Assembly: GCA_000002435.2 (NCBI GenBank)
Contig: CM018793.1
DNA length: 64,000 bases
DNA from: Giardia intestinalis
Taxonomy: Eukaryota
Direction: 5' to 3' (one strand)
Shown: positions 5,522 to 38,800 of the stretch, one piece after another
How positions within the stretch are numbered: position 1 is the stretch's first letter
How the letters are laid out: the number at the start of each line of letters is the position of its first letter
Program-made: the position numbers and the translations under genes
The notes under the pieces: model-generated
Told to the model about the DNA's origin: nothing
Seen by the model: the letters and a program-made list of their open reading frames with translations, nothing else
The model's database searches: none

Positions 5522-5681
5522 CGGCGTTTTAAATCAGCCGATCTTTTTTAGGATTGACTTTTTTTGGATTATCACAAGCAAGCCTAATACGACAATTTAA
5601 AATAAAACTTAAAAAAGTGAGACTAAGAGACATACATCTTAAAAACCTTCCTAGTTACTTAAAGCAAAACGATAAGAGACA

Positions 5682-7016: not shown

Positions 7017-7085
7017 GAAGTTTGCTTGTCACGCTTGTCGGAGGCGTTCAGAAGTGGTACTGGCATTAGTGGTGGTGCCATTCCG

Positions 7086-9944: not shown

Positions 9945-9988
9945 CTTCCGACGAAAATGAAATTTTAGTCCACAAAAGATTTAGCTAT

Positions 9989-13741: not shown

Positions 13742-15968
13742 TTTAAGATGATTATAGAATGATCCGGGAACCCCTCCTGCAACGAAAGCTTAGCCATCCT
13801 ATTTATCCAGGGGGCATTAGAAATCAAGAGATACATTTAACTGATCATTGCGTGTATTGAACAACTCATACTAATTTCTTTGTCCCCAGTAGCTGACCCT
13901 AATCATCCCAGTAGAGCCCCACATCAGGTATGGATCTTGCGTAGTGCTGAGCCATATCCCCTATGTCAATAGATGCTGCTTCGGTGGCTCCAATTTGAAG
14001 GAGGGAGGCCCTTGTCACTGTATAGATTTGTGTCAAGTGAAAATTATCGTGGGCTTCTTGGAAGACCCGACGGCTCGCTATATTCTGCCATCTCTATGCT
14101 TGCCATGGCTACTGGAAATACCGATGCATGTGTGCAACTCATAAGAGTGAGCTCTGCTTGATTATTTGCTCAAACTGTCCAACCCATGATAATAGGACTG
14201 CTACCAGAGGAGACCATGAACGAAACCCTAGTACTCACGAGGGCACTCTCAGATGAAGTGGTTTGTATGCGCTCTTTAGCCCTCGGAAGCTCAGTGCACA
14301 TGGTTACTCATCCTTTGACACCAGACTCGCCCACAAGACGCACTGGCCACACTATAACACCCTTGGTGGTGAGCCCAGATAAGGGTGCGTGCGCTGATAG
14401 TATTGTATGTCAAAAGACCTTCCTAGTAGCAATGTGCTGGTCACGGTCAAGAAGACATTACCATTTTGATGCATCGAGGGTTGATCGATTCGTTAAGACA
14501 CTGTCGGTATTCTACTCGTATAATCGGGACCCATCTCATCTACAAAGGTTCTACTTGTGTGCACGCTCACCCGGAAACCAGAATCGAGACCTGGCAGGCG
14601 TCACTCGCCCTGCAGCGATTTGGTACGACAGCAAGGGTGGACCTCGGATTGACGGGGGATGCTTCCCGGCGAGTCCCAGGTGCACTGCAGGTGGCGATCT
14701 CAACGTGGATGAGTGCCCAGTCGGTGAAGTCATGGCTCACAGGGAGGCGCCTGGACTACCCACAAGGATTGGGGAGATCCAAGACTGCAGTGTCCGTTGG
14801 TAAGACACACAGTAGGAACGCCTTGTGAGATAGACCAGAAGTCCTCCGCCCAGTCGTGGCTAGTACCTGCAGCTAGTAGCCCCGTGGGCTCGTCCCGGAC
14901 GCTCTTGGTCAAACGGATAGCCGATGCGGTCGTGTCAGAGGTCAGTCTCCGCCTCCACATGGCAGAACAGTGGGAACAGTCGTCTATAGGCAGGGACCTT
15001 CTCTTGAACATAATGCAGCTAACACTGTGCCACAGTACCCATGACTGACTTGGTGGGCTACACTATGGCAATACTTCGCAGAGCCCCAGTTCGCAAGTCA
15101 TAAGGCGATTGCCAATTCAGACCGAGACATCCTTTGTGTACGCTGGGCCTATCTGCAGTATAACGAGCAGCGTATCTGTTTGACCAAGAGGCTGCCGGCG
15201 TGGATATGCACTGCCGTATGCCCAGGCCTATAGTTGAATGACAGACCGTTCAGGTGGGGGATCAGCGATTGCCTTGACGTGCAAGAAGAGCCTCCATGCG
15301 ACATCGTTCCACAACGGTATGCGTAGGATCTGCGGCGAATGGCACCACCACCAAAGCGGACGAGGCGCTGTGCTATCGAGAAAGGAGGCTCATATCTTCT
15401 TATGACCAAAGAGCCTAGCAACAACATTTACACAGCAATGCATACTATCGCAATGGACTTTCCTTGTGGGCAGTGTTAAAATGTTCATGTGCCATGTCGT
15501 GAGGCCATGGCGTATTTTGCATCTCCTGCGCCAACGTCATCGCTGCCTATTAGTGCAGAACCTGGCTATCTTGGAAGGCCTCCTCAAGTTCGTCTATGCC
15601 TTTCTCGAAGAAGGTCCTTGGTAGTGGAGCTCGCTTTATGAGTGCTGTCTACCTCCTAGCAGAGCAAATTGACGGATGATGCACATGCGGGCTATACACT
15701 TTTCCGAAGCTTGTAGGACACGGTGTTATGGCGGCTTTAACGGTACACAAGCCACGCCCGCCTGCAACAGATGGCCTCGATAGGATGCTCTTGAGTAGGG
15801 CACCAGTCAACTAGTCTAGTCCATGGGCACCGCTGAAAAGCACCAGTGTCTTCTTGTTCTACACTGCGGTGTGCTCACAGCGATACGCTGAAGGATGCGT
15901 GCGGCCCGGTGGAGGCGGCCTCTACTGCTATCTGATTGCCCGTTAGTGTGAGCGTGATTCGACGGGCA
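13742..15968. other. 2.2-kb ORF-poor block upstream of the VSP gene (candidate decayed gene and/or non-coding RNA locus)
   Basis: Only short ORFs, in all three plus-strand frames in succession (14186 frame 2, 14466 frame 0, 14797 frame 1), plus overlapping minus-strand ORFs. No AT-rich initiator, no recognisable protein motif. Unusually long for a genome whose other spacers here are 10-200 bp. Confidence 0.3.
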
Positions 15969-17246
15969 ATGTTGTACTTGGCAGGTTTAGCATTCGCTTA
16001 CTTGGCGCTTGCCGATCCAAAATCGTGCACCAACTCTCAAAATTGTGCATCTGGAGATAACTGTCTAGATGTCAATATGAATGGTTCTCCTACAGAGGTT
16101 TGCACAAAATGCGAGCCAAACAACGTCCCGATCGACGGGGCGTGCAAGCCGGCCGCAGACAACACGAACAGCTGCGTAACCTCGGATAGCGGGGCCGGCG
16201 GGGTTTGCGCGTCGTGCCAGGGGAGCACCTACCTCTACAAGGGCGGGTGCTACGCCGCGTGCCCTCAGGGAACACCAAACTCTGAGACTAACACATGCGA
16301 TGGAGTCCCCGCCCCTGATTGCAATCTCGCCAACTGCGAGGTGTGCTCGGAGGACAAGCAGAAGTGCACAAAGTGCCAAAGTAACTACTTCCTCACTCCA
16401 GAGAAGAACGCTTGCTTGGCGTCTTGTCCGGCCGGGTCGTACGCGGTTGGGCAAACGTGCGCGCCCTGCGACCCCTCCTGTGCGGAGTGCAGCGGGGCCG
16501 GCGCTTCCAAGTGCACGGCCTGTCCCGCCGGGAAGATGCTGAGGTACGCCGACGAGAGCAAGCTTAATGAGGGCGGCCAGTGCGTGGAGCAATGCGTGGA
16601 GGGCCCGGAGTGCGAGACGTGCGGCCTAACAATTGGAGGTACCAAGTACTGCTCGAAGTGCAAGGGGAACAACGTGCCGCTCAATGGCGTCTGCACAAGC
16701 AATGCGGCCAGGACTCGGTTCTGCACCACTGTCGCTAACGGTGCTTGCACGGTCTGCGCCGCCGGATACTTCATCCAGGAGGGCGGATGCTACAAGACTG
16801 ACAGGCTCCCCGGGAAAAGCATCTGCACAACGCCCACTGGGGATGGAAAATGCCAAACGTGTGCGAATGGCTTGACAGCTGTCTCGAACATGTGTCCATT
16901 ATGCGACTCCACTTGTGCGACATGCACCGTGGCCAATCAACCCGATAAGTGCAGCACGTGTCCACCTGGCCGTTACTTGGACGCCAGTAAAGCATGCAAA
17001 CTGTGTACAGAGACAAGCGGTAGCATCCAGGGCGTCGCTAACTGCGCGAGCTGCGCTCCTCCAACTGGTAATAGTGGTTCTGTCATCTGCTACGTCAAGA
17101 CGGATGGCACTGACAACGGCGGAAGCACGAATAAGAGCGGCCTCAGCACAGGCGCTATAGCGGGCATCTCCGTCACGGCGGTTGTCGTCGTGGCTGGCCT
17201 TGTGAGCTTCCTCTGCTGGTGGTTCCTCTGTAGGGGCAAGGCGTGA
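15969..17246 (+). CDS. variant-specific surface protein (VSP), 425 aa
   Basis: Track start 15936 is TTG; first ATG 15969 gives signal peptide MLYLAGLAFAYLALA. About 16 CXXC motifs, GGCY motifs (KGGCYAACP, EGGCYKTD), C-terminal TM helix and invariant tail FLCWWFLCRGKA-stop. Confidence 0.9.
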   Translation: MLYLAGLAFAYLALADPKSCTNSQNCASGDNCLDVNMNGSPTEVCTKCEPNNVPIDGACKPAADNTNSCVTSDSGAGGVCASCQGSTYLYKGGCYAACPQGTPNSETNTCDGVPAPDCNLANCEVCSEDKQKCTKCQSNYFLTPEKNACLASCPAGSYAVGQTCAPCDPSCAECSGAGASKCTACPAGKMLRYADESKLNEGGQCVEQCVEGPECETCGLTIGGTKYCSKCKGNNVPLNGVCTSNAARTRFCTTVANGACTVCAAGYFIQEGGCYKTDRLPGKSICTTPTGDGKCQTCANGLTAVSNMCPLCDSTCATCTVANQPDKCSTCPPGRYLDASKACKLCTETSGSIQGVANCASCAPPTGNSGSVICYVKTDGTDNGGSTNKSGLSTGAIAGISVTAVVVVAGLVSFLCWWFLCRGKA

Positions 17247-21829: not shown

Positions 21830-22810
21830 GGAAACTTAGATGCTATGTTGCTGGGCCCACCTGCAGACGTGGTCCAGAGGCCTTATGAGTGATCCTCGCT
21901 CAATTCCTGGCCATGTCTGAAGATGAAGGCTGGTTGTAGATACCATACTAGGGGTTCTTCTCTAGTAGTGCATCCAAAGCCAGGTGCTTTCCCTAGTCAT
22001 TCTGTGCAGCGTCCGCGTCGCTCAGTCTAGGATTCAGCTTACTCATTGGCATATGTAGCTTGTAAGTTGTATCTCTCCTTGGTCTATCCCCCCGATGAGG
22101 GAGGGCCCCAGCAGTCGATGACCCTGGACCGACGCCTCGGTGGACCGACGCATCACCCCAAGTGTGCTGTGCAGATGGACCAGCCCACACATCACTGAGC
22201 CAGACGCACTGCACAGGGTGAGCGTCGACACGGTCTCGTGCTGGATGACGGACCACCTGCAAGAGCGCACTGCGATCCATGAGCAGAGGGCCGGGCCTCT
22301 TCTCCGACACAACGCATGGGAGTACTCCATCGGCATCTACGCACGCGTACCACAACCTCAAGATAGAGGGACACGGGGAGCGCACCCTCCGATCATACTC
22401 GGGACTGATGACTCGCTTCATGAGGAGACGAAGAGGCACCCCGAGGAACGGGGTAGACACCCGGGGTCATAGCGTATCCCATCTTCGTCATGGAGTACCA
22501 GGGTCCCGGGCCACGTGGAGGCCAGATCGCCGCAACAGACGCAAGGCCCTGAATAGCAGGTGCCCACCAGTGCCAGACGATAGTTGACCCCGATGGGCCA
22601 GAGGAAGGGAGGAACCCTAGAGGTAACGTGAGGAGCAGCGGCTTCCGGGGGACGGGGCACAGAGTCTTCTCCTGTCGGGATCGAGGGCACCTGACTCTCG
22701 GATTTCTGATCCCAGCCGTGTATGGGCGAAAGGCTTGCCTAAGGTAGCAGTGGCTTGCACGGGAGATCACTCAGGTAGTAGGTGACAACCCCACCCTGGT
22801 GAAACGAAGA
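21830..22810. other. GC-rich (about 60-65% by eye) 1-kb orphan block with no coherent ORF (candidate ncRNA or decayed VSP-type fragment)
   Basis: Lies between SF3A3 promoter and the stop of the next minus-strand gene. Many overlapping short ORFs on both strands, typical of GC-rich non-coding sequence. Ends with ACTCAGGTAGTAGGT (22769..22783), a 12/15 match to the VSP extended poly(A) signal. Confidence 0.3.
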
Positions 22811-22827
22811 GTAAATTAGGTGTACAT

Positions 22828-25800
22828 TTACTTTCTAAAGTCCCAGCAGTCCCCGTTGTTTGAAAGCTGGCCGCTCTTGGTGAAGATACTGGTGGTGCTA
22901 TCCACGGGGTCGTAGACACGGCTCACAGACATCTCCGTCGCCGTGCAATCTGATATCATGGGGAAGAGCTCGCTATCGGTCAATGACACCACACTCATGC
23001 TAACCTCGATCATCGTCTCCTTGTAGTCCTTCGAGCGCATGAACTCCATACTATAGAGGTACCTGAACGTGACGTTCTGGCATATTCCACCGAAGAAGAG
23101 CCCGGCCCAGATGAGGTACTGGCAGAAGAAGATGGCTCCGAACGTCTCCAAGAGCCCCGTCCCCAGCGTCAGGCTCCTAATGCTCTCGGGGACCACCTCT
23201 AATACGTAGGGAGTCACCAAGCCCTTGGGCCCTATCAGGATGTCCAGGAGCCTATTGAGCTGGACGTCGAGCGGCTCTATCACGTGCTTGTTGACGGTAC
23301 TTCCAAGCTCCATCAAAACCGTGTCGTACATATGCTGAGAAAACCGCGGGTACAATCCTCCGGACAGGTTCTTCGAGACCATGTTTGCTTCGATGATATC
23401 TAAGAGAATGGACAAAGGGGAGACTACAGCGTTGAGCAGCTCTGTGTATGCATCTATGAAGCTGACCTCATCGGTTGAAAAGCTACTCCAGTTATTGAAC
23501 ACATCCACAAACCGCTCGTAGACCCTTGTTGTGTCTAGCACCACATCTAGTGCCCCGCTGGAGCCATCGTTCGGATTGCTCGCAGCATTCCAGCCAATCG
23601 TCTGGAAGCCCTTTTCCTGAAGCGCATACACGAGGTCTCGCACGGCTGCGTATGTGTTGGAGACGCAAATGGAGGTCTGTTCTACGGTGTCACCTGGGCG
23701 GATCTTCGTGCACAGGTTTCCAACGAGGTCTGGGTATGGAGACCCGTGGACGATGGAGGACAGGCTAGTGGAGATGCTTGGACACGAAGTCTTGAGGTTG
23801 GTTAGTTCGGCTCTTATCTTCTGCATTGTGCTCTTAATACTGCCCTGTGAACACAGATTCTTATCGACGGGGTTATCGGCAAGGAAGGTCACCGAGGGGC
23901 ACTTTGTCATAGCGACCAAAGTATCCAGAAAGTGAATCATGGAAAGGCACTCTGCGACTATCCCCTTCTGGCCCCTAACGGCTTTGGCACTGGCTTCGAG
24001 GGACAGAGCGCTATAGTTCGCGCTGGAGGAAATGCCTCTGATATAGGCCTCAACCTGCGCTGTGACATTCATGGCAGCCAGAGCAGATGCATCAACATCT
24101 CCGTACAAAGCTGTGCGCTTTTCTGTACTGGAATATGTGTCGTTATATAGCTTGTGCCCTGCAGAGAAGTCCCCGAACAGGACGGCGTTCGAGAGCTCGC
24201 CACTGAGGAACGCGTTCCTAATCCCGCTAAGAAACGGATCAATGTCCGGAACAATGAAGGTCTCGAGGTACTGTGAGAGGCTGGAGCGGGGGTTGATAGC
24301 TTTGGGTAGCACCGCGGGCAGCAGCCCTTGGAGCCCGCCCAAAAGATCCGGCAAGCCGAGGATATCGAGGATCCCTCCACCCTTCTTGTTGTAATAGAGG
24401 AGGTCTTTGATGGACATGCGAGTTGTATCCACCCTCGTGGAAAGGCTCAGAGAGGCCATGCTGTCATCAGGTTCGGCAGGAATCCCAAACATGCTCGGCA
24501 GGTTTCCGACGGCAACGGTAGCTGTCACGTTGGCGAGGCTCTTACGGAGAGCATCGTATGTGGTGTAATCCAACACGGCGGACGACGGGGCTGTGTAGGC
24601 TAGGTCGGGGTGCCCCGTGTGCCGGAGCACAAAGGACCCCAGGTCCAGCTGGACCGGCGCAGGGTCTCCTATGACTCCGTTGTCTTTGAGGAGTTGGAGG
24701 ACGGTGTCGTAGTTGTTGCGCAGAAGCTTGTCTGGGTTGGTGAGGAGCCCCGAATAGTACTCCAGAGCGAACTTCTGCAGAACCACCGCGACGATCCCGA
24801 ACAGCATCAGGAAAAGCGACACCCAGCAAACAACGCACCCGTTGCAGCACAAAGAGCAGCCAGCGCACCTCGTCTTGAAGCGCGCAGCGCCCACGATCCC
24901 GCAAATGAACGTCCCGATTGGGACGAGGAGAAGAGCCAGGGCGAGCAAGAAAGGGGCCATCGATATCAGAACGTAATTGCGGCCAACAGGCGGAATCGTT
25001 GCCGGATCAAACCCAGAGAGCTTGCAATTCTTCAACGAGTCCAACGCACCGCCTTCTACAGGCAGGTCTGTTATGTAACCGGGGCAGGCCCCGTTGTTTA
25101 TGAAGGCGTCGAACAGAGCACGCGCAGTCATCTGCTCCTTGTGGTCGTGGAGTTGCAGCACGTAGTTGATGTACTTGGAGAAGCTGGAGACCTGTGTCAG
25201 GGCATCGGTTGCGAGCTTAGGCAGGTTCAGCTGGTCGCTGATAGATCTGGCGAGCTCCTCGTCTGTTGGTCCTCCCTCGGCCCGCGTGGCAGACGCACAC
25301 CACGATAGCTTGCACTTAAGTGCCGGCTTGCCACACGCCCTCCGGACTATGTCCCCCACGGTCGACGTCTTCGTGCTGAGTACTTCAAGCAAGTCAACGA
25401 GTAGTTGTGTGTCATCCTTGCCCTGCTGTTTGCCAGACGCCTTCGGCCTTAACGAGTCTATAACGAACTTTATCACTGTTTCGGGGTTGTTGTTGACCGG
25501 GACATTCAGATCTGCTCTGTCAATAGGTGAATCGGAGGCAGCAGCAACACTGGACTTTGTTGTGCAATAATTATTTCCTGAGTTATCCTTAAAGGCCTGC
25601 TTGCACACCTTTTCAATGATAGTTTGCCACTTGTCTTGAACTGGTGGTTGCTGCTTATCTAGCGACTTCGCTATCCCGTTGGTGATAGAATTGGCTGCAA
25701 AGACAGCCCCGCCAATAAGAGACTTCTTGTTGATGTTCTTGTAGCTGGCCTCGGAGATTGCCGTGTCATCGGGTGGAGACGGAGGTTGCGTTGATCGTAT

Positions 25801-26601
25801 AGAGAAGTTGCCATAAGTTTTCTTGGTTTCTAAATTGTTCTTTACTGATTCTTGTGTCTTTGTGTTCAACAATAAATCTAAGTTTTTCTGTATGTTATCT
25901 GAGAAATCTGTGATAGCACTCAACGAGGGTAGGGACGCAGGCGGCAGAAGGATGGTGCTGACCCCCTCTGCCAGCGAGGAATTCTGCGACAGGACATCAG
26001 AGACCACTCTCAGCGTGCAGCTCTTGGAAATCGCGCTTATGTACTCGCTGGCCTCGTCTGCTGTTTTATTCAAGATATTGGAGATTGGGGAAATGGAACT
26101 ATTATCTGAGCTCGAGATGAGCGCGTTTATAAGACTGTCTGAGGCGCTAATGGTGTCCGAAGCTAGATCGTAGACGCGATCGGTCGTTCGAGCCACGACC
26201 CGAAACATGTTGTCCACGCCAATGAAGGGCTGGGAGACGGCGACGAACATCCCGATGCATCCGCAGAGGCCGATGACGTTGGCAGCGAAGCCCGTGTAGA
26301 AGCAGCAGCAGCGGTACTTGCTGGATGTCTGCTCCATCTCCAGCTTCCGGTGGCAGCATCTGCGACAGCACTGGCTACACCGGCAGGGGGCTATGCAGAC
26401 GAGCGCAATGTTGAAGCAGAGCCCGAGGACAAAGGGAAGAACAAGCAGGACGCCCATGGCAACCAGGAGCGGAAGATACGGCTTGAGGGCAGCCATGACA
26501 TCCACTCCCCCACCCTGGTGCATGAACAGGTTGGCCGTATCTATGATTGTTTCCGGCGGCACCCTCGGGAAGAACGCCGTACTAAAGGCCGTGACCCCCA
26601 T
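22828..26601 (-). CDS. pentaspan membrane glycoprotein with prominin/Tweety-like topology, 1257 aa
   Basis: Track start 26604 is TTG; ATG at 26601. Hydrophobic helices by eye at about aa 40-65, 100-125, 540-570, 585-605 and 1095-1120. Cys-rich short loops after TM1 (CRCSQCCRRCCHRK...YRCCCFY) and after TM3 (RCAGCSLCCNGC). Two large (about 420 and 480 aa) loops with many NxS/T sequons. This is the prominin layout, but with larger loops. Confidence 0.4.
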   Translation of the reverse strand: MGVTAFSTAFFPRVPPETIIDTANLFMHQGGGVDVMAALKPYLPLLVAMGVLLVLPFVLGLCFNIALVCIAPCRCSQCCRRCCHRKLEMEQTSSKYRCCCFYTGFAANVIGLCGCIGMFVAVSQPFIGVDNMFRVVARTTDRVYDLASDTISASDSLINALISSSDNSSISPISNILNKTADEASEYISAISKSCTLRVVSDVLSQNSSLAEGVSTILLPPASLPSLSAITDFSDNIQKNLDLLLNTKTQESVKNNLETKKTYGNFSIRSTQPPSPPDDTAISEASYKNINKKSLIGGAVFAANSITNGIAKSLDKQQPPVQDKWQTIIEKVCKQAFKDNSGNNYCTTKSSVAAASDSPIDRADLNVPVNNNPETVIKFVIDSLRPKASGKQQGKDDTQLLVDLLEVLSTKTSTVGDIVRRACGKPALKCKLSWCASATRAEGGPTDEELARSISDQLNLPKLATDALTQVSSFSKYINYVLQLHDHKEQMTARALFDAFINNGACPGYITDLPVEGGALDSLKNCKLSGFDPATIPPVGRNYVLISMAPFLLALALLLVPIGTFICGIVGAARFKTRCAGCSLCCNGCVVCWVSLFLMLFGIVAVVLQKFALEYYSGLLTNPDKLLRNNYDTVLQLLKDNGVIGDPAPVQLDLGSFVLRHTGHPDLAYTAPSSAVLDYTTYDALRKSLANVTATVAVGNLPSMFGIPAEPDDSMASLSLSTRVDTTRMSIKDLLYYNKKGGGILDILGLPDLLGGLQGLLPAVLPKAINPRSSLSQYLETFIVPDIDPFLSGIRNAFLSGELSNAVLFGDFSAGHKLYNDTYSSTEKRTALYGDVDASALAAMNVTAQVEAYIRGISSSANYSALSLEASAKAVRGQKGIVAECLSMIHFLDTLVAMTKCPSVTFLADNPVDKNLCSQGSIKSTMQKIRAELTNLKTSCPSISTSLSSIVHGSPYPDLVGNLCTKIRPGDTVEQTSICVSNTYAAVRDLVYALQEKGFQTIGWNAASNPNDGSSGALDVVLDTTRVYERFVDVFNNWSSFSTDEVSFIDAYTELLNAVVSPLSILLDIIEANMVSKNLSGGLYPRFSQHMYDTVLMELGSTVNKHVIEPLDVQLNRLLDILIGPKGLVTPYVLEVVPESIRSLTLGTGLLETFGAIFFCQYLIWAGLFFGGICQNVTFRYLYSMEFMRSKDYKETMIEVSMSVVSLTDSELFPMISDCTATEMSVSRVYDPVDSTTSIFTKSGQLSNNGDCWDFRK

Positions 26602-26869
26602 CAATTATTATTTGTACTAATTGTCATGCATCATAAGTACATTTTTCAGAACAGCGCGCCATTCTCCTCCTGGCACACTGGGTACCCTCTGCCACCTTTT
26701 GCCTCCTCAACAGGGATTGCCTGTCTCAATAATTTGTAGACACTTGTCCGACAATTCGCCGTCTTTCCTCTTCTCTTACCGGGGCCAGGGGTCGACGAGG
26801 TTCCTAAAGTTGTATACCAAATCTCGAATTCGTAGATTTCAGATTTAGATTTAAAGCTGCCGAAAATAA

Positions 26870-26876
26870 ATTCACT
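26870..26876 (-). promoter_or_regulatory. AGTGAAT polyadenylation signal (AGTRAAY) overlapping TGA stop of the MATE-like ORF
   Basis: Minus-strand read GAC GAG TGA ATT TAT; plus-strand attcact at 26870..26876. Confidence 0.6.
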
Positions 26877-27489
26877 CGTCGGAGGCTGTCTCGCACTGCT
26901 TCTTGTAGTCCAGGGTCCACTTGATGTAGATGATCATGGACACCAGGCCAGAGACGGCGTCCCCGACCGCGGGCGAGATGAAGATGCCGTGCACGGGGTC
27001 GATCTGGCTCTTGGTCGCCTTGATGATGAGCGGCAGGACGAAGATGCACACGATGGTGACGGCTGCTCGCGTAAGCTGCAGTATCGTGCTGAGGACGGTC
27101 TTCCGCTTCATCTGCGACACAGAGACGGTGATGCTCACGAACAGCTGGAGAGGAAGCCCGGCCAGCCCGAGCCGCACGGCCAAGGCGGAAATGGCCCGCT
27201 CCGTCTCTCCGTCGCCCACAAAGAGATACATAAGAGGGTAGGCCAGGCCCTCGCAGAGCCCCCAGACGGCCAGGGTCATGACCACGCCGATCAGGCTAGT
27301 GTAAACGAGGACAAGGTAGAGCTTCTTGGCCCCCAGGTTATAACCGAGGATGAATGGCAACCGGTAAGATCTAGTCATCAATGCTAGTACAGGTCTGCTG
27401 CTATGCAATTGGTTGCTATACAGAGCATCTGTTTCGTAATATATCACAAAGCTAAAGCCTAACTCGCAATGCATGGTGTAGGTAATCAT
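26872..27489 (-). CDS. multi-pass membrane protein resembling the C-terminal half (TM7/8-12) of a MATE efflux transporter, 205 aa; possibly a truncated gene
   Basis: By-eye alignment with MATE C-terminal halves: RLPFILGYNLGAKKLYLVLVYT (cf. RVSNELGAG.PK.A); GDGETERAISALAVRLGLAGLPLQ (cf. SGDAVSKAVSDLCPLLAI...Q); tail IIYIKWTLDYKKQ (cf. IxxRTDWxKEAxKA). 4-5 TM helices. The 198 bp upstream on the same strand are full of stops, so there is no N-terminal half. AGTGAAT poly(A) signal overlaps its stop. Confidence 0.35.
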   Translation of the reverse strand: MITYTMHCELGFSFVIYYETDALYSNQLHSSRPVLALMTRSYRLPFILGYNLGAKKLYLVLVYTSLIGVVMTLAVWGLCEGLAYPLMYLFVGDGETERAISALAVRLGLAGLPLQLFVSITVSVSQMKRKTVLSTILQLTRAAVTIVCIFVLPLIIKATKSQIDPVHGIFISPAVGDAVSGLVSMIIYIKWTLDYKKQCETASDE

Positions 27490-27687
27490 AACATCAGATC
27501 GTGTACCTCTATACTATTCAGCTACAGTCTCTCCGCAGGACTCCGTTGTTAAGCACTCCTTATGCTGGTGCTAAGACATATTAATACAGTGTGGCCGACA
27601 GATTGTTAACTGCAGCACAGCTTGTAGCTATCAGAAATAGTCAGCAACGGGTCGCGTATCACTGATAGAAGGAGTGAATAGATCGAT

Positions 27688-30492
27688 TTACTTCTTGACG
27701 TCGATGAAGGGGCTCTCATCAGCGATTCCGACAAACTTCTGACTAAAGTCATCGCACTTCGAGATTCGCTCTGTTTCTGCAGGCTTGTCGTCAATACTTA
27801 GGCGTGCGCCAATACGCTTAGTGCTTGCCTTCAAAGCCTTGATATCCAGGCTTCCATCCTCCAAGAGACCTACCTCACTCAGTTTCTCTTTCAAGGATGA
27901 TAGCTCTGCAGTTGTTGTGCGTAGAGACTTTCTAAGAGTTAGGGTCTCGTCGTCTTCTCGATAAAGAATAGGTGACAGAGTTCTGCTATTTCGAGCAGAG
28001 TTAGTTTGAATCTGTGAGGCTGTAATAACGTGTGTAACTGCTCGCTCTTGAGATATTGTTGCATTGCGCATGCTCTCGACCTCTGCTTCCTTATCCCTTA
28101 AGACAGCTTGCAAACCAACAAAGGCTTCTTCTTGTGCTCTGAGTGACTCCAGTAAAGACTGGATTGTTGCATCACGCTCACTCAATTGGTTTGTGAGAGC
28201 ATCCAGTCTTTCAAGCGTTGTATTTGGAGATACGACGGATTCAGATAGGGTCATGCTCATTTTCAGCGTTTCGATTTCTTCGTCTTTTGAGTGTAGCTCA
28301 TCAAGAAGAATGCGGTTAGAGTTTGTGAGCTCCTTCAGTCTGTCACGATCTGTTCCTGCCTTTGCTGTTACAAGTGCATTGGACAGCCGTGCATTTTCCC
28401 GTGCGAGGGCATCGTTTGCTCTTGACAGCTCTTCTAGCTTTTGTTTATGTTCCTCAGAGGTACAACCATGGATTGTTATGGGCCGTGTTTGAAGCTGTAT
28501 TGTGTTAAAAAGTTCTCGCTGAAGATTCGATATTTGATCTTCCTTCTCCTTCAACTGTTTTGTTAACTGTTCAGAATCATTTTGATTCAACTCTTGCTTT
28601 AGCGTGGCAACGTCCTTCTCCAATTGGTTATTCTCCACAATCAAGCATCTTATATCGTGCATTCGTGCCATTATGATTCTTTTAAGGGCGTCTGGGTCAT
28701 CCCCTTCTGGAACTGTAACAGGCGCAAGGGTGTTTAAACTCAATCGTGCAATTTCAGCTTCCTTTTGCTTTAGAAGCTCTTTGTAATACTCAACCCCTTT
28801 GAAATTGTCTATCACGGGGGTAGGTGGAATAGTTTCTTTTTGGTTTTGTGCCTCCCGGGAAGCTATGGCTCCGATAGTCATGTCAGGAATGAGAAGAGAG
28901 CAGCTCTCAGAATCAGGCTGCTGTTGATTTCTTGTCACAACGGGATCAGTAGTAGATGTCTCCACAGACTTGTCCGAGGTTTCAACGAGTTTCTGCGGAT
29001 ATAATTGCTCTGAAGAATGTGGCCCAAATCTGTTAACTGGTTCCACAGCGCAAGGGTACAGTTCTTGAGAGCCATCTAATGGAGTTCTGATCCTTGCAAC
29101 ACTTAGCTCTAACACTTCAGGAGCTTCCTTTCTACCTTCAGACAAATATGCTTTGTTCATATTACCACACAGTCGCTCAAGCAAACTACGCAGAACCTTT
29201 AGGTGCGGGTTCTCTATGAGAACAACGTCCACGTCCGACGAAACATTATCTCCGATGTCTTTCTGAAGCTGTGTTGTGCTTCTGTCAGACTCGCCACTAA
29301 GGCTCAACTCTGCCATCCTATCGACGAATTCATGAACTAGCTGGGCAATTACTTTGTCTCTTTCAGAGATTGCTATTTTGAGGTAATCGGATCCGCCATC
29401 GAGCTTAGTCGCTTTAATATAGTCTCGCAGTTTGCTCTCAAGTGCATCTGCTCTTGTTCGTTCGCTTGCAAGTTGCTGGTCATACCACCTCTTCAGGGTA
29501 TCCATATCATCCGTGTCGCTCTCCGCAGGCATGCGAAGAGAGCCTGCCCGTCTATTGAGGATCTCTGAGTCCACGCTGAACGGGTTCCCATGAGGCGAGT
29601 TTGTGGCAGATATGACACTAATTATATCAGCTGAAGCGTTAAGCTGTTCCTGTAGTGTTTTTACTTGCTCTTTCAAGCGGTCATTCTCTTTCCGAAGAAG
29701 ATTGTTCGAGTTTCGCAGCGTAGTAATCGCCAGATTGTCAGCATCATCTGCCTGGTCCAGGGTCGCGGCGCCTGCCTTGTCCGTTGCTACTGAACTGCGA
29801 GGTGAAGTGTTTTGTGAGAAACTGACGGCTCTCTCATCCGACCTTGTCGTTTGAGATACCGTGGATGCCTGCATAAAGCTATTTCCTAGAGAAGGGTTCC
29901 TGATAAGATGATCATAGCGGTGGCTATCGCGCGAATTAGAACTGAGAAGTGATGCAGATTTCTCCCGTAGTAAGTCGTGGATGTGTGTGTATTCCTTTTC
30001 TACAGCAAGAAAGAGAGCGGTCTCAAGGTCCTTAAGAGTGGTTACACGCATTTGAAGGATGAATTTCACGGCCTGTTCCCGGTTCTCTAGAACAGCGTGA
30101 TCAAGAGCGGAAAAACCTGACTGATCGGTTCGTAATGCAAAGTACGGGTGAATCACCTTCATAACCTCAATGTTCCCGCGAGACGAGGCCAACATGAAGG
30201 CGTCACGCCCGTCCGGCATAGATATATTAGCCTCGAGTGGTGCTAAGAGCTCTGCCGTCTCTGCGCAGTTCATAAGCGCGGCCTGCATAAGTGCTGTTAG
30301 TCCAGCCTTGTTGACCATGCATACCTCCCTCGGGATAAGCACCTTAGCAACATCTAGGGCGTTGTTCTCTGCAGCCAGAATGAGCGCCGTATCTCCCTCA
30401 TCGGAAACGGACCTAGCGTAGACATCCACTGTCTCCATTATCAGTGCACAATTGTTGGCCCGCGCTGCATCGAACCACGTGTGGGGTGCCAT
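27688..30492 (-). CDS. ankyrin-repeat plus extended coiled-coil protein (21.1-family-like), 934 aa
   Basis: ATG 30492 with AT-rich leader. N-terminal ANK repeats (DTALILAAENNALDVAKVLI, LTALMQAALMNCAETAELL, RDAFMLASSRGNIEVMKVI). Long charged heptad-rich remainder (LKEQVKTLQEQL..., ELNQNDSEQLTKQLKEKEDQISNLQRELF). Confidence 0.75.
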   Translation of the reverse strand: MAPHTWFDAARANNCALIMETVDVYARSVSDEGDTALILAAENNALDVAKVLIPREVCMVNKAGLTALMQAALMNCAETAELLAPLEANISMPDGRDAFMLASSRGNIEVMKVIHPYFALRTDQSGFSALDHAVLENREQAVKFILQMRVTTLKDLETALFLAVEKEYTHIHDLLREKSASLLSSNSRDSHRYDHLIRNPSLGNSFMQASTVSQTTRSDERAVSFSQNTSPRSSVATDKAGAATLDQADDADNLAITTLRNSNNLLRKENDRLKEQVKTLQEQLNASADIISVISATNSPHGNPFSVDSEILNRRAGSLRMPAESDTDDMDTLKRWYDQQLASERTRADALESKLRDYIKATKLDGGSDYLKIAISERDKVIAQLVHEFVDRMAELSLSGESDRSTTQLQKDIGDNVSSDVDVVLIENPHLKVLRSLLERLCGNMNKAYLSEGRKEAPEVLELSVARIRTPLDGSQELYPCAVEPVNRFGPHSSEQLYPQKLVETSDKSVETSTTDPVVTRNQQQPDSESCSLLIPDMTIGAIASREAQNQKETIPPTPVIDNFKGVEYYKELLKQKEAEIARLSLNTLAPVTVPEGDDPDALKRIIMARMHDIRCLIVENNQLEKDVATLKQELNQNDSEQLTKQLKEKEDQISNLQRELFNTIQLQTRPITIHGCTSEEHKQKLEELSRANDALARENARLSNALVTAKAGTDRDRLKELTNSNRILLDELHSKDEEIETLKMSMTLSESVVSPNTTLERLDALTNQLSERDATIQSLLESLRAQEEAFVGLQAVLRDKEAEVESMRNATISQERAVTHVITASQIQTNSARNSRTLSPILYREDDETLTLRKSLRTTTAELSSLKEKLSEVGLLEDGSLDIKALKASTKRIGARLSIDDKPAETERISKCDDFSQKFVGIADESPFIDVKK

Positions 30493-32871: not shown

Positions 32872-35800
32872 TTACTTGGTCACCGTAATTGTTCCGCTGG
32901 CAGGGGGGCGTGTGCATTTTCCGATTAATGGCACAACCCAGAAGCCACCTTGCTTATTGTATACGACAAGGCTTGCGCTATACTCTCCGAAGCTTTGGGG
33001 CGAAAACTTGAGAGAAATAGTAAACGGCTGACCATACGATGCCGCCACCTCGGCCGATGTTAATCCAAAACAAGCAAGATTGTTCTGAATAGCCTTACCA
33101 TCGACGATTCCTAACACTGTTTCTCTCGTCTTGGTTGACACAGCCCCGCTGGCTGTCTTCTTCGAAATAAGCTCATTGATACCTGCTATGTCATGCATTT
33201 CAGTTAGCCCAAGGGCATACACGATTTTCTCCGTCGGCTTTGGCCTGAGATTATTCACAAGGGTAATCGTGAATGGAAGAGTAGTCCCCACGTCAGCCTG
33301 AACCTTCATAGGAGAGGACGGCCGTGGGATGTAACACATAAGCTCAAGAGTGTAATCAACCCGGCACAGCTCGCTCTTCTCCACACCGCTTAAAATTGTT
33401 GATACACCGAAAGACACCTTTGTATTGATAGCCCCCGAGTCAAAGGGGACATATGGATTGAACTTGACTTTGAATGAGTAGGTGCTCGTCTTGTTGTTGA
33501 ACGTAACTGTCTCTGGTGTAATCGTAAGATCATCACGATCATTTGTGGCAGTAAGTGTGAGGGAAGAAATAGTCTTGTTACTGAGAAGAGGGTTTGGTAT
33601 AGTGATGAGCTTCTCCACAGGGTCGCGCACAGTTGTCTCCAGGGCAGCGCGGCCAACAACTGGTGCCCCGCCAGATTCAAAGACAAAGCGATAAATAAGC
33701 TTCTCGTTCGTTTCATGTGCCACAAAAGATAGGGTTCCTGCAAATAGCTTTCCAGATATAAACGGCATAAACCCTAGCTCTATATTCCGAACTGCTCCTA
33801 TAGCGGGAGCATCCACTATCTCCGGATAGTTCAGCTGGCAGAAGGTGCTGAGAGAAGAATCTAGGAACTGGACATCAACGGTGAAGCGCTGCATTCGCTT
33901 TTCCCAATTCCGCAGAGGGAAGGAGAATGTAGTATACCGATAACAAGTGGCCTCCACACCTGTGCAGATGGTCCTCTGGGCCTTTGTGAGGGTATCAATA
34001 AAGCTCTGGGGAAGGCCCTGTGGCACGCCTGCCACTGACGTCTGCTTTCCTTTGTCCTTCCCAACTATAGCCACAGACGCTCCCGATTTGCCAATTAGGT
34101 CGTTGTAATCTGCCTCTTGCATATTAGTAATCACAGCTTCATCCATAGGCTGCCCAACCGTTCCATGCAGGGCCCATATACTTGCCCCTCCATCTGCACC
34201 TGCAATGTAGAGGTCAGCACGATGCAAGTCAGCAGTAGCAAGAGGACTATACATGACCTTAAAATCCATTCCGCCTGGTGGTATACTGAGCCGCTCCGGA
34301 ACCTGGAATTGTCTGGCGTCTGGTCCGTCCAGAATAGAACGTACGACAAAGACAGAATCTGTGTTGTTGTCAACGTGTAGTATGGTGAATGTAGATTCAC
34401 GGGCATTGCAGGACATATGGACTTCTTGGGCGTTAGGTGCTGCCTCCATAGATGCCTTGTCAAGACATACACAGCGAAGGGTGGCTTCCCCGACTACAAT
34501 CATCTTCCCCTCCAGTGTGCACTCTACGGGGATGCTGGGGATAAAGTGCCGGCAAACCTGCTGTGGGGAAAACTTCACTGTGATAGTAGCGTTCGTTCCA
34601 ACTGGAATAAGTCCCGAGACAGGACTAATCGTTACCACCCCCTTCTCAAAAAGCTCCAGAAGGCTCTTCTTAACGAGACCCTTTGGAGGGACAGAGATGG
34701 TATAACGTAGCTCTGTATCGCCAGTATTTTCGATGAAGAAGTTTCTGGACACAAAGGAGTTTATAATACATGGGGGCATCTCTATATTCTGATTTATAAG
34801 CTTTGCTGATGAGCCCAAGACTGCGCCTTTAATGCTGATAATGCTATCAAAAATGATACTATCTTCAATGCTAATCGAGGCCGAAATCTGGAACTGCGGT
34901 GTCCGAGAAACCGGACTGTGCATGATCATAATTGTGCAGAGTTGATTTGGAAGCATTTCACTCTCCTTAGGGAGCCCTGTCAAATAGATTTGCTTAGTGT
35001 TTCTATTGCTCCAGTTATCAAGCATATCCATGCACTTATTAAAGTAATCGTGGTATTGCTCTGTAGGGACTATTGCCAAGAAAAGTCCCTTAGGGACTTC
35101 ATCTGAAGAGACGTCATTGACCGCTACACGCGCATGCATAGTGGCGCTCGTTGTATTCTTGATATTAACGGCCTTGATAATTGGCGGGCTGGAAAGCGAG
35201 GTGCTTCCCAAATTAATAACAGTTAGCGCATGCGACGTACTGAGATTGCTGTAAGAATTGATAAGAGATCCACTCAACACATCATGCAGAGCAAAGCTGC
35301 AATCAATACCTTGACCTGTCAAAGGATAGCGCAACTTATAGAGCCCGTTGACCATAACGGTAAGCATGTCCTTGAACTTTCCGGCGTAGCCGGGTATAAA
35401 CTTGATTGCTACATCATGTGTCCTTCCAACGCGTAGAGGCTCAGAAAGAGGTGGAGTATCGATGAAGAAGTCGTTTGTTCCGAGGAAGTATTCCATGGTA
35501 AGTGGCTGAGTATCCCTGTTCACAAAGGAAATGACCCTTGGAGCATACTTATCGTGGCGGAGAGAATTCAACATGGCTCCATAATCCAAGCGAGTTATTT
35601 CCGTATGCAGCCCAGGCTTCAGCCCAGTTCCTAGAAGTTGCAACTCTTGTGACCCACAGCCCTCTACACTGACCGTGAAGGTTAGACCGAAATCCTTAGT
35701 AAGTCGCAGTTCCAAAGTAGGTTGAAACTTCAGGGTTATGAAGACATGATCTCCTGGTTTGATAGTTTGCTTAGATGTTGCGTTGGTTTCCTTATCTCCA

Positions 35801-38800
35801 TCCGAGGTTTCCACTTCATACTCAAGACAGCTTTTAGCCCGTTTAAATTCTACTTCGTCACGCCTTGCAGTAGAATTATGACGCTTCAGAGAAAGAATGC
35901 ATGTATATCCTATCGTGTGGGAGCCAATATTTGAGAGCCTGAGTGTTCGTGAACGGTAATCCGAAACAAATACGGTTTCAAAATTAAGCTCACTGTGCGA
36001 GCCTAGCTGGTGGGGAAGGCCAACTGGGGTGTCTGGAAGGAGCTCAAGAAGATGCTTTGCATTAAATGACTCATATTTGACATTGAGGGAAAGCGGTACA
36101 GACCGTCGCGGCATCACAATTTTTATCAGTTGATTGATGCGTCCCTCGCATGTAGGCTTCACAGTGAATAGTATAGACGTTGTCGACAGGGGCTGAAGTA
36201 TTCCCGCTGTCGGAGTAATGGTGCACTGGAAGGATGCATTGGCACTATCATCGTCCACCATGTTCTTAGCAGGTTGCGCTAGGCGAATCTTATAATTCAT
36301 TGGATACTTTTCAGTATTAGTCAAGCTCACTTCCTTGGTAGCACAATCACCAACAAGAATGGGATTGAATGACAACTTATTAGTGCTTAGTATAACCTCC
36401 GGCTCAGTGGGCCGCCCGACAACGAGTAGAGGCAACGTAACATCATGTTGAGGAATGCGAAGTATAAAGAAGCCCTCCTCAACTCCAGCACGAGTGCTCT
36501 CTCTGGTGGGGGTATAATCGAAGCGTATGATAGAGGTTTCGCCAGGCGATACGCGGCCACCGGCGCCGAATGTCGACACTATACTGGAGTTGCTTTCGGG
36601 AAGGCGCTGCAGCGTTACATCGTACGGCTGATTAATGCAGTTCAGAACGGTGATATGGTTCGTGATAGTAATCCCAACACCCTGTCCGAGTATTTCTAAG
36701 ACCTTCACTGACTTCGGATTAGAACAAATCAAATTGGCAAATGATTGCGGGGTCTTCATAGAGCCGGGGCGCATCGTCTGGAGGTACACATTGTTGCTGT
36801 TGCATTCTAGATGACAGACAGGCAGGATGGCCATAGCTGAGAGAGACAACGATATGTTGCCAGCAGTGGAGGCGAACACTTCATGATGAGCTCCAGGGAA
36901 GCGAGGCTCATAAGAAATATTATATCGTATCAGGTACCGGTTGATATTTGGATTGCTCGATGTTAGTGCAGTTTGGAGAGCGTTTAAGGCGTTCTTGTCT
37001 ATCTGGGTCTTTGCTCCTATACCAACCTTTGCCATAAGCCCGGAGATAGAGGGAATTTCTGGCAAGGTCGGATAGTACTCACGAACAAGGGAAGCCAGTA
37101 AATCAGGCCTTGCAGGAACCATGGCAATCTCGGTTTTTCCATCGAGAACAGGCTCAACAAGATAGGGACTCTCGGGTTGTGATGTAGCCATAGAATTGAA
37201 TATGACAACAGGACTTGTCTGTGAATCGTTAAGCAGATAGAAGGCAGCAGCAGACTTTTGAAGGATTGGTGTGCTAACCATTGGGAACTCCAAAAGTGAG
37301 TATCCATTGACGCTATCAGCTTTCAATGTCAGCGGCTCTAAGTCTCCAGTTGACGAGCTACTAAAGCACTTAACTGAAAAGTCACCCGCAAAGCCGAAGA
37401 GGTTAAGCTCGAGAAAACTCGACGCCAATGCAATACGGTTGTCCGGCGCATGGATATCAGATAGCACCTTCTGAAGCAAAGCCTGTCTATCAGCAGGGTG
37501 AGCAGCCTTGGTGGACGCCTGCGATGGTCCTTTTCCAGTACGTGGCAAACCGTCGGTAAGATCTCGGGATGAGACCATTTCTTCGAGCAGGCTCCTTACC
37601 TCATCCTCATCTAGATAAACCTGATATTCTGGCTCTGGACAGACAGTCTCTGTGCGAACAGCAACACCGTTAGCATTTGTCACGTAACTTATCGTTGTTT
37701 GAGCATTGTCCCAGTCATTAACGCGTCGCCCTGGCTGGAACATGATTGGGTAATAGCGACAAATCAAGGGAGTGCCGAACAGCACTGTCTGACCATATTT
37801 TGACGGCATTTTCTTGGTTTTTAGCGGTGCTGCCTTACCTCCAGGCACACTGAAAAGAGAAGCAAACTCATCAGCGTTCCCTGGGCAAGTGAGACGAAGG
37901 ATAATCGTCTTCTTTGCCCCTGCATGGATGTGGCCTATTGATGGGTGAACAATTACACCAAGCTTCCGGCAAAGATCTATGTTGAATTCAAATCGGATGT
38001 GGTTTGTACTGGTGTTCTGTAAGATAACCTCTGTATTATATATTGCCGAGGTGAGAGTGGTCATATATTGTGGAATTGGCGGCGGAGAGCTAACAGACAT
38101 TGATGAACTTTGTGAGGGTCTGCTTTTCGGCCGTGCGTTGCTAGGCTCTGTAGATGGCAGTGATGTCTCGCCGAACTTCTCTTCTTCCGAGCCTGCCAAG
38201 TTAAGAGGGAGATCTTTGAGATAGACATTGGCTCGATTGCTGATTGCCTGATTGAAGTGTACATCTCCATACGTAGAGATCTGGTTTTGGCGTAGCTGCT
38301 CGTATGCCTTACTATCCGACAGATGGCTGAGAATCGTCTCAGTCAGCTGTTCTGCCTTAGGGTTGCCAAATGTCCCAAATAGTAGAGCAGTGGTTTCTTT
38401 ATACATGATTTGTATAGCTGTGCTTATAAACCGGCCCTCTATGGCGTTCAGCTTGCTAGAAATGGCGATACACTGGAGAGGAATCTCCGCGACGTTATAG
38501 TCCACGAAGCTCGTCATAACCTTGAGGGTCAGTGTTGCAGTAATAACTTCCCCATTAGGGAATTTGGCCAACGCGGCTGTGTTTGGGGCTATGGTAAAAT
38601 AGTTCTTCGTTGACGCCGGAAGAACGACAAGGCCTGTAAAAAGCCTTCCTTGTGGAATGGGCTCCTTGACATGTATCTCCTCCCCATCCTCTATAACAGG
38701 ATCAGAGGAGCCACGGCCCTGTGATTGCAAAATCACGAAGCAGTCCGCGTGGCGCATATCTTGTGAACTGATGACGATTGCATAAGATGCACTGACGCGG

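Follow-up and report, generated by a model that had tools for sequence, protein, structure and literature searches.

Prominin-1 (CD133) is a widely used stem cell marker and a retinal disease gene whose molecular action on membranes is debated, and shed vesicles typically carry prominin. The TTYH proteins (TTYH1-3), of which cryo-EM structures exist (e.g., 7P5J), are a proposed distant relative of prominin; in both, a continuous helix runs ahead of the third transmembrane segment (TM3). We know of no further family in which a 2+2+1 arrangement of TMs goes with a pair of huge loops and a cluster of Cys where TM1 meets the first intracellular loop (IC1). Prominins carry such a cluster at this boundary (PMC10967083), and their most conserved residue, nonmetazoan sequences included, is a Trp of TM5 (W795, in the context W-F-G; PMC11405016). 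TTYH proteins have the same 2+2+1 topology but extracellular loops of ~120 aa and a TM5 without a conserved Trp (PMC11405016), and cryo-EM work has put their pore function in doubt (PMC10967083). Putative nonmetazoan prominins have been described from fungi, excavates, SAR, and green plants on the basis of five TMs in 2+2+1 order, extracellular loops of >300 aa, short intracellular loops, the TM5 Trp, and BLAST/InterPro homology to metazoan prominins (Bell et al. 2024, PMC11405016); Giardia is not named in the text of that article, the species list of which is given in figures.

The window, a stretch of 64,000 nucleotides of Giardia intestinalis (contig CM018793.1), contains on its minus strand a single uninterrupted open reading frame (ORF) of 1,257 aa, GL50803_137713, that runs from an ATG at 26601 to a TAA at 22828-22830. 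By exact-sequence look-up, its product is UniProt A8BBX2 of G. intestinalis WB, labeled "hypothetical protein." A TTG sits one codon upstream of the ATG, an AT-rich stretch lies immediately 5' of the ATG, and the AGTAAAT that overlaps the stop codon fits the Giardia polyadenylation consensus, AGTRAAY; the start and polyadenylation contexts are typical. Peptides assigned to A8BBX2 have been picked up by mass spectrometry (PMC9445159, Table S1). GL50803_137713 is a real, expressed gene for a large integral membrane protein of Giardia trophozoites, for which a five-pass topology is predicted. Hydropathy analysis with Kyte-Doolittle windows delineated five strong hydrophobic segments in 2+2+1 order (Table 1), whereas one or two marginal windows (1.55 to 1.67) carry Asp/Glu and are unconserved among family members. 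The short loops are net basic (K+R/D+E of 7/2 and 3/0) and the large ones neutral to acidic, so that the positive-inside rule predicts an N-out, C-in orientation. Cys residues are concentrated around and after TM1 (positions 62, 69, 73, 75, 78, 79, 82, 83, 98, 99, 100, 113, and 115) and TM3 (567, 579, 582, 585, 586, 589, and 592).

Table 1. Features of the GL50803_137713 locus (window coordinates; residue numbers refer to the 1,257-aa protein)
Feature	Position	Strand	Description and basis
CDS of GL50803_137713, complete	22828..26601	-	ORF list and translation; 1,257 aa plus TAA stop
Putative polyadenylation signal AGTAAAT	22826..22832	-	Seen in sequence; overlaps stop codon
N-terminal segment, aa 1-44	26470..26601	-	Predicted extracellular (alignment; loop charge balance, positive-inside rule); MGVTAF-TA-FP motif common to the Giardia paralogue (alignment)
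TM1, aa 45-71	26389..26469	-	Kyte-Doolittle peak 2.7-2.8; kept in all family members
Cytoplasmic loop 1 (IC1), aa 72-100	26302..26388	-	PCRCSQCCRRCCHRKLEMEQTSSKYRCCC (sequence); 9 Cys, 7 K/R versus 2 D/E; candidate site of multiple S-palmitoylation
TM2, aa 101-124	26230..26301	-	Hydropathy
Large extracellular loop 1 (EC1), aa 125-545	24967..26229	-	421 aa; hydropathy windows, alignment; 4 NxS/T sites; Cys423, 435, 506, and 526 invariant in 5/5 family members
TM3, aa 546-571	24889..24966	-	Hydropathy 2.5-2.7
Cytoplasmic loop 2 (IC2), aa 572-589	24835..24888	-	AARFKTRCAGCSLCCNGC; Cys-rich, basic; length 16-18 aa; 94% identity between assemblages A and B
TM4, aa 590-612	24766..24834	-	Hydropathy 2.7-2.9
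Large extracellular loop 2 (EC2), aa 613-1152	23146..24765	-	540 aa; hydropathy windows; 6 NxS/T sites; low-confidence models suggest a mostly helical loop with a short strand-containing stretch at ~aa 650-723
TM5, aa 1153-1175	23077..23145	-	Hydropathy; most conserved segment of family (identity to window protein: B orthologue 86%, paralogue 52%, remote relatives 34% and 21%); W1165-x-G1167 invariant in 5/5 members (W1165 codon, 23107-23109)
Cytoplasmic C-terminal tail, aa 1176-1257	22831..23076	-	82 aa; topology inference; 62% identity between assemblages A and B; unconserved in paralogue
Block with second copy elsewhere in the WB genome (GL50803_60774 locus)	22823..27352	.	blastn of L003-L005 against the window; 98.4-98.8% nucleotide identity

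This predicted layout recalls that of prominin (prominin-1/CD133 and prominin-2) in the order and orientation of the TMs, in the pair of large extracellular loops that bear N-glycosylation sequons, in the two short basic cytoplasmic loops, and in the TM1/IC1 Cys cluster, which in Giardia comprises the 9 Cys of IC1 plus C62 and C69 in TM1. IC1 is equivalent in length, being basic, 28 to 29 aa long, and endowed with 6 to 9 Cys in the family and in human prominin-1 (28 aa and 6 Cys in the latter). The two also have in common a TM5 Trp in a W-x-G context, but the Giardia Trp lies deeper in the helix: W1165 is mid-helix, whereas human W795 is close to the outer end of TM5. Since the TM5 regions of the family and prominin yield no significant alignment, the equation of W1165 with W795 is no more than a positional analogy. 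Unlike prominin, the Giardia protein lacks a signal peptide in its N-terminal segment and the ~85-aa N-terminal ectodomain, its Cys cluster after TM3 is far denser, and its extracellular Cys pattern is not obviously common to both. An earlier note on this DNA had proposed an N-out, 2+2+1 order of five TMs with a tail, which hydropathy and the positive-inside rule bear out in five divergent members, and Cys clusters directly after TM1 and TM3, which the sequence confirms; it had also put the loops at about 1.5 times the length of those of metazoan prominins. They are indeed longer, but the factor is 1.6 and 1.9 relative to human prominin-1 (421 and 540 aa versus 261 and 289 aa, by the same measuring).

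Orthologues of assemblages B (64% identity) and E keep the same layout, as do the paralogue GL50803_16888 (31%) and two remote relatives from one other organism (P0031 and P0032; 17 to 21%). For GL50803_16888, the UniProt annotation, as reproduced in Table S1 of PMC9445159, likewise gives five TMs. When 1.84 billion representatives were searched exhaustively with a profile, only Giardia proteins and two sequences of one SRA sample came back, with no prominin or TTYH among them. The family is small and fast evolving: Giardia has GL50803_16888 and a near-identical pair of copies, and the other organism has two genes.

In Pfam searches, the sole match of the window protein was Prominin (PF05478; 20.4 bits, E = 1.6e-4), with aa 49 to 160 aligned in register to profile positions 91 to 202, i.e., TM1-IC1-TM2; the second WB copy, 98% identical, scored 23.5 bits (E = 1.8e-5). 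Both scores miss the gathering cutoff of 34.3 bits. The earlier note's proposed assignment to the prominin/TTYH superfamily, for which it had named PF05478 as one check, is partly supported: it stands as regards the architecture, the register, and Prominin being the only match, and falls short in significance (20.4 versus 34.3 bits). The family consensus scores just 9.4 bits and aa 1 to 330 alone 13.5 bits, aa 1 to 700 give no reported match, and neither the B orthologues nor the two 16888 sequences nor P0032 matched Prominin in this search. The top match of the remote relative P0031 is Tweety (PF04906; 20.5 bits, E = 2.1e-4; cutoff, 31.8 bits) over the same TM1-TM2 region, whereas the window protein has no Tweety match; human prominin-1 itself matches Tweety in this region at just E = 1.6e-5. 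Reversed sequences of the window protein and P0031 matched neither model, and 2 of 22 locally shuffled controls matched Prominin, at 8.9 and 11.3 bits, which indicates that the real sequences contain some order-specific signal. A public precomputed table already lists A8BBX2 as a weak Pfam Prominin match.

Direct comparisons gave less. In hhalign against 20 mammalian prominin-1 sequences, the family attained 84% probability (E = 7e-6; score, 59.7), with reversed and shuffled queries at 59 to 80% probability (scores of 50.7 for the reversed query and up to 49.6 to 54.7 for shuffles); when the two subfamilies were run separately, the signal was lost and their scores fell within the control range. 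Profile-profile similarity to mammalian prominin-1 is therefore barely above, or no better than, that of controls, and a mammalian prominin-1 HMM run on the family gave no signal above shuffles. BLASTP against human prominin-1 (E = 0.028) yielded four weak colinear segments, namely, TM1-TM2 with the start of EC1, TM3-TM4, EC2, and TM5. A sequence search of a PDB set without prominin recovered neither TTYH chains nor anything else relevant, and two AlphaFold models built from 6 to 7 sequences (mean pLDDT, 41 to 43) were too poor for fold comparison. Neither outcome that the earlier note had named as contrary, a TM number different from five or an unrelated fold as the best structural match, was encountered, and the models gave no positive structural support either. 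The Giardia protein has the predicted topology, long extracellular and short intracellular loops, and a TM5 Trp, as do the putative prominins of Bell et al. (PMC11405016), and likewise comes from an excavate, but its homology to annotated metazoan prominins is short of accepted thresholds.

Our preferred reading, held with somewhat better than even confidence, is that GL50803_137713 encodes a member of the prominin/TTYH superfamily that has diverged very far and acts as a palmitoylated raft organizer. Common ancestry with prominin, palmitoylation, the orientation, and any membrane-shaping role are what we infer; the comparisons neither demonstrate nor exclude that ancestry. The reading is favored by an architecture identical to that of prominin and kept down to 17% identity, the agreement of IC1 in length, charge, and Cys content together with the TM1/IC1 Cys cluster, the in-register subthreshold Prominin and Tweety matches with controls well below them, the colinearity of the BLASTP segments, the status of TM5 as the most conserved segment with an invariant W-x-G, the putative prominins already known from excavates, and the recovery of A8BBX2 and A8BG86 in a raft fraction (see below). 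It is weakened by Pfam scores far under the cutoffs and erratic among members, an hhalign result barely above controls, the nil signal of the prominin-1 HMM, the lack of a relevant PDB match, the poor AlphaFold models, the absence of the protein from vesicle fractions, and the presence of other membrane proteins in the raft fraction.

The most credible alternative, to which we would assign distinctly less than an even chance, is a pentaspan surface protein specific to Giardia and related fornicates that resembles prominin by convergence, without common ancestry; its large ectodomain, acting as a receptor, adhesin, or structural surface component, would then be carried by a pair of TM hairpins whose turns are basic and rich in Cys and by one further TM. 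Such an origin would agree with the narrow return of the exhaustive search, the loss of the Pfam match in the consensus and most members, an hhalign score that can be regarded as equaled by controls, the excess loop length, and a loop Cys pattern that does not obviously correspond. Moreover, the Prominin signal is limited to a compositionally odd TM-Cys-TM hairpin, for which shuffles of like architecture still reach 8.9 to 11.3 bits, and the low-confidence model places before TM3 a nonhelical, Pro/Gly-rich, Cys-containing linker, unlike the helix of prominin and TTYH. Convergence sits less well with real sequences that align in register and outscore all controls by ~10 bits, and with two members only 17% identical that each pick one family of the same superfamily from 24,736 models. 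Also against it, we know the combination of topology, loops, and Cys cluster solely from prominin and TTYH, and prominins are on record from excavates (PMC11405016).

A narrower assignment, to a TTYH-like ion channel subunit or channel accessory protein and not to a membrane organizer of the prominin type, is very improbable. The Tweety match of P0031 and the shared 2+2+1 topology (PMC11405016) would suit it, but the TTYH loops are a fraction of the 421 and 540 aa found here, TTYH proteins lack both the TM5 Trp that is invariant in this family (PMC11405016) and comparable Cys clusters in their cytoplasmic loops, the window protein matches Prominin and not Tweety, no TTYH sequence of the PDB was matched, and the pore function of TTYH is itself questioned (PMC10967083).

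Published proteomics bear on the proposed role as a raft organizer. Mass spectrometry recorded A8BBX2 and the paralogous A8BG86 in the purified lipid raft fraction alone, with values for control, nystatin, and oseltamivir of 10.6, 6.7, and 4.4 for A8BBX2, which is of low abundance and declines under either drug, and of 36.3, 15.3, and 7.2 for A8BG86; for vesicles, whether large or small, both values were zero (PMC9445159, Table S1). Association with a cholesterol-dependent raft fraction would be a further likeness to prominin, and the lack of detection in secreted vesicles is a further difference. Many other integral membrane proteins (e.g., PMCA and ABC transporters) are present in the raft fraction as well, which may be no more than a fraction of membranes. 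The analyses gave no support to the link with the ventral disc or flagella that the earlier note had suggested. On the model of prominin, we propose that the clustered cytoplasmic Cys would carry S-palmitoyl groups at several sites; with the TM bundle, in which TM5 with its invariant Trp is the most conserved element, they could drive partition into cholesterol/GM1-rich rafts of the plasma membrane, where the bulky, mostly helical, disulfide-braced ectodomain might organize or stabilize membrane domains or curvature. Giardia, a cell with unusual membrane specializations (an adhesive disc, a ventrolateral flange, and eight flagella), has no sterol synthesis of its own; it depends on cholesterol scavenged from the host, and its attachment and encystation require intact rafts. 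If homology is genuine, the superfamily would have arisen as far back as early eukaryotes, and its core function (e.g., raft organization, curvature, and links to cholesterol) could be tested in this single-celled parasite. That the superfamily is as old as the last eukaryotic common ancestor and persists in Giardia as three genes for heavily palmitoylated pentaspans resident in rafts is a tentative proposal, which we rate somewhat below even; Giardia would then offer a simple, genetically tractable system for the action of prominins on membranes. If convergent, the protein is simply a lineage-specific surface protein. The gain is modest, because excavate prominins have already been reported and the public table flags A8BBX2; what is added is a name for each of three Giardia genes annotated as "hypothetical" and a hypothesis about them that can be tested.

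A chance ORF or decaying duplicate, as location in a recently duplicated block and a merely "hypothetical" annotation might suggest, is in effect refuted by conservation and proteomics, given an ORF of 1,257 codons intact in the two WB copies and across assemblages A, B, and E, the detected peptides, strongly conserved TMs and IC2, and typical start and polyadenylation contexts. The duplicated block has its 3' boundary 5 nt beyond the stop codon and extends upstream past 27352, and the gene neighbors at the GL50803_60774 locus are unlike those in the window. The proteins of the two copies differ at 24 positions, 18 of which fall within residues 105 to 539, mostly in EC1.

GL50803_137713 of Giardia intestinalis WB encodes a real, expressed protein that is built like a prominin and that is most economically read, with some hesitation, as probably belonging, with great divergence, to the prominin/TTYH (Tweety) superfamily. 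An exact-sequence look-up showed its product to be identical to GL50803_00137713 (UniProt A8BBX2), labeled a hypothetical protein. Kyte-Doolittle analysis recovered five strong hydrophobic segments (TM1 to TM5; aa ~45-71, 101-124, 546-571, 590-612, and 1153-1175), along with one or two marginal windows that contain acidic residues and are unconserved. The short loop after TM1 (IC1; PCRCSQCCRRCCHRKLEMEQTSSKYRCCC) holds 9 Cys within 29 residues, and that after TM3 (IC2; AARFKTRCAGCSLCCNGC) has 6 Cys in and just past its 18 residues. When the hydropathy windows are used as TM boundaries, basic residues exceed acidic ones in both short loops (7 K/R versus 2 D/E in IC1; 3 versus 0 in IC2), while the large loops EC1 (421 aa) and EC2 (540 aa) are neutral to acidic, with 4 and 6 NxS/T sequons, respectively. 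By the positive-inside rule, these charges suggest an orientation with the N terminus outside and the 82-aa tail inside. The five-pass layout with Cys clusters after TM1 and TM3 that the earlier note had claimed is thus borne out by hydropathy, Cys positions, and loop charges; its claim of longer loops than in prominins also stands, but the factors are 1.6 and 1.9 relative to human prominin-1 rather than 1.5. A comparison of the N- and C-terminal halves for internal duplication matched only the TM hairpins, weakly (12% probability), and such a duplication was rejected.

The sole Pfam match of the protein is to Prominin (PF05478; E = 1.6e-4), with aa 49-160 aligned to profile positions 91-202, i.e., exactly prominin TM1-IC1-TM2; the score is 20.4 bits versus a cutoff of 34.3. 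GL50803_60774, a second copy of the gene, reaches 23.5 bits and is already labeled "Prominin (weak)" in a public precomputed table, and the best Pfam match of P0031, a remote relative (see below), is Tweety (20.5 bits), over the TM1-IC1-TM2 region. For scale, human prominin-1, whose query sequence scored 1028 bits with the Prominin profile, reaches Tweety at only E = 1.6e-5. The reversed window protein and reversed P0031 matched neither model. Among 22 local-window shuffles preserving the TM/Cys architecture, two matched Prominin (8.9 and 11.3 bits); hence, architecture alone draws this model weakly. This bears on the main rival, a fornicate-specific protein that arrived at a prominin-like layout by convergence, which we hold to be quite possible but less likely than divergence; the real sequences score ~10 bits above the shuffles. 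The signal is fragile: it is absent from the assemblage B orthologues, both sequences of the paralogue GL50803_16888, and the second remote relative, P0032, and is not reported for aa 1-700; the family consensus scores no more than 9.4 bits, and the fragment aa 1-330, taken by itself, 13.5 bits.

Alignment of the family with 20 mammalian prominin-1 sequences by using hhalign gave a match spanning TM1-TM2 and the first part of EC1 at a probability of 84% (E = 7e-6); reversed and shuffled queries gave 59-80%. The two subfamilies aligned separately to prominin-1 remained within their controls, the global mode of hhalign returned nothing but trivial end overlaps, and TM5 on its own scored 14.3, below the shuffles. 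With a hidden Markov model of 20 mammalian prominin-1 sequences, the real family sequences scored within the shuffles, and BLASTP with human prominin-1 recovered four weak colinear segments (best E = 0.028). PDB sequence searches with the window protein, two family profiles, and P0031 recovered nothing relevant, TTYH included, from a set without any prominin entry. AlphaFold2 models of aa 1-1195 (7-sequence alignment; mean pLDDT 43.0, pTM 0.28) and of TM4-EC2-TM5 (aa 588-1182; mean pLDDT 41.4) were too low in confidence for use.

A word-index search recovered orthologues from assemblage A variants (97% identity), assemblage E (84%), and assemblage B (63-64%), and nothing outside Giardia with either the window protein or the family alignment as the query. 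Three further members, namely, GL50803_16888 (UniProt A8BG86; 31% identical to the window protein), P0031 (E = 9.9e-6), and P0032 (E = 6.2e-4), came from an exhaustive profile search covering 1.84 billion cluster representatives, in which no Giardia muris or Spironucleus orthologue appeared. P0031 and P0032, the sole relatives found outside G. intestinalis, are two paralogues from one organism, with compact intron-less genes, a standard genetic code, and ~56% GC; the genes adjoining P0031 are not its paralogues. A metagenome contig scan gave 331 pattern matches, none of which was a relative. All members share the 2+2+1 layout, two Cys-rich short loops, four invariant EC1 cysteines, and an invariant W-x-G in TM5, where family-wide conservation is highest; assemblages A and B share 94% identity in IC2. 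In prominins, a TM5 Trp is reported as the most conserved residue, and TTYH proteins lack that prominin Trp and have loops of ~120 aa (PMC11405016). A narrow TTYH-type channel role, toward which the Tweety match of P0031 might point, appears highly improbable.

Coordinates of the gene, its surroundings, and its remote relatives
Feature	Sequence	Coordinates	Strand	Details
GL50803_137713 ORF	window	22828..26601	-	1257 aa from ATG (ORF list, translation)
Extreme N terminus, aa 1-12	window	26566..26601		MGVTAFSTAFFP
Variant-specific surface protein gene	window	15936..17246	+	Pfam VSP, E = 7e-104; ~6 kb from GL50803_137713
Duplicated block	window	22823..27352		at least 4.5 kb, upstream end not reached; 98.4-98.8% nucleotide identity (blastn)
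205-aa ORF	window	26872..27489	-	several hydrophobic segments, without Pfam match
Giant unbroken ORF	window	32872..52248	-	6458 aa
GC-rich region	window	22001..28000		GC 0.52-0.56 versus 0.44-0.46 in flanking 2-kb bins
P0031	L001 (contig of Logan assembly SRR31929897)	8001-11834		1277 aa; profile search
P0032	L002 (contig of Logan assembly SRR31929897)	3917-7711		1264 aa; profile search

Both A8BBX2 and A8BG86 were detected in the purified lipid-raft fraction only, with zero in large and small vesicles (Grajeda et al. 2022; PMC9445159 Table S1); their normalized values for control, nystatin, and oseltamivir are 10.6/6.7/4.4 and 36.3/15.3/7.2, respectively. This listing shows that A8BBX2 is expressed and is what one would expect of a membrane protein associated with rafts; the table also confines other integral membrane proteins to the raft fraction. 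A non-functional ORF is virtually out of the question. On a single normalized value per condition, nystatin left ~63% of A8BBX2 and ~42% of A8BG86, and oseltamivir ~41% and ~20%. Absence from Giardia vesicles is a mismatch with the best-known behavior of prominin, and the protein is missing from a secretome supplement and a 2026 EV-paper supplement. Main texts in the literature gave nothing for the gene identifiers or for prominin together with Giardia.

In CD133, the cysteines clustered where TM1 meets IC1 are described as a possible palmitoylation site (PMC10967083, review). If the window protein is a divergent prominin/TTYH member, its putative cytoplasmic Cys clusters may be palmitoylated, which would help retain the protein in cholesterol/GM1 rafts; its large ectodomain might organize membrane domains there. 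Putative prominins have been reported in fungi, excavates, SAR, and plants (Bell et al. 2024; PMC11405016), and Giardia is not named in the text of that paper. Should the homology hold, this would be a new, highly divergent member from a lineage group with such proteins already reported; three hypothetical Giardia genes gain a testable hypothesis, one of little surprise to the specialist.

Candidate Gly2 myristoylation was dismissed because residue 6 is Phe, which we take to misfit the consensus. The paralogue GL50803_16888, despite its 31% overall identity, has nearly the same first 12 residues (MGVTAFATAFFP), which are far better conserved with it than is the remaining N-terminal segment.

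The protein of GL50803_60774 is 98% identical to the window protein, with 18 of the 24 amino acid differences within residues 105-539, mostly EC1, and its gene lies at another locus flanked by different genes (Sfi1-like, RING finger, and SF-assemblin). The duplicated block ends 5 nt past the GL50803_137713 stop and includes at least 750 bp upstream of the gene; the GC-rich region roughly coincides with it, and the 205-aa ORF lies within it, directly upstream of the gene. An AT-rich stretch immediately precedes the ATG, and the TAA stop overlaps AGTAAAT, a match to the Giardia polyadenylation consensus. The neighbors are ordinary Giardia genes (SF3a60-like, ankyrin-repeat proteins, cathepsin-like protease, thiolase, and VSP), and the window also holds the giant unbroken ORF.
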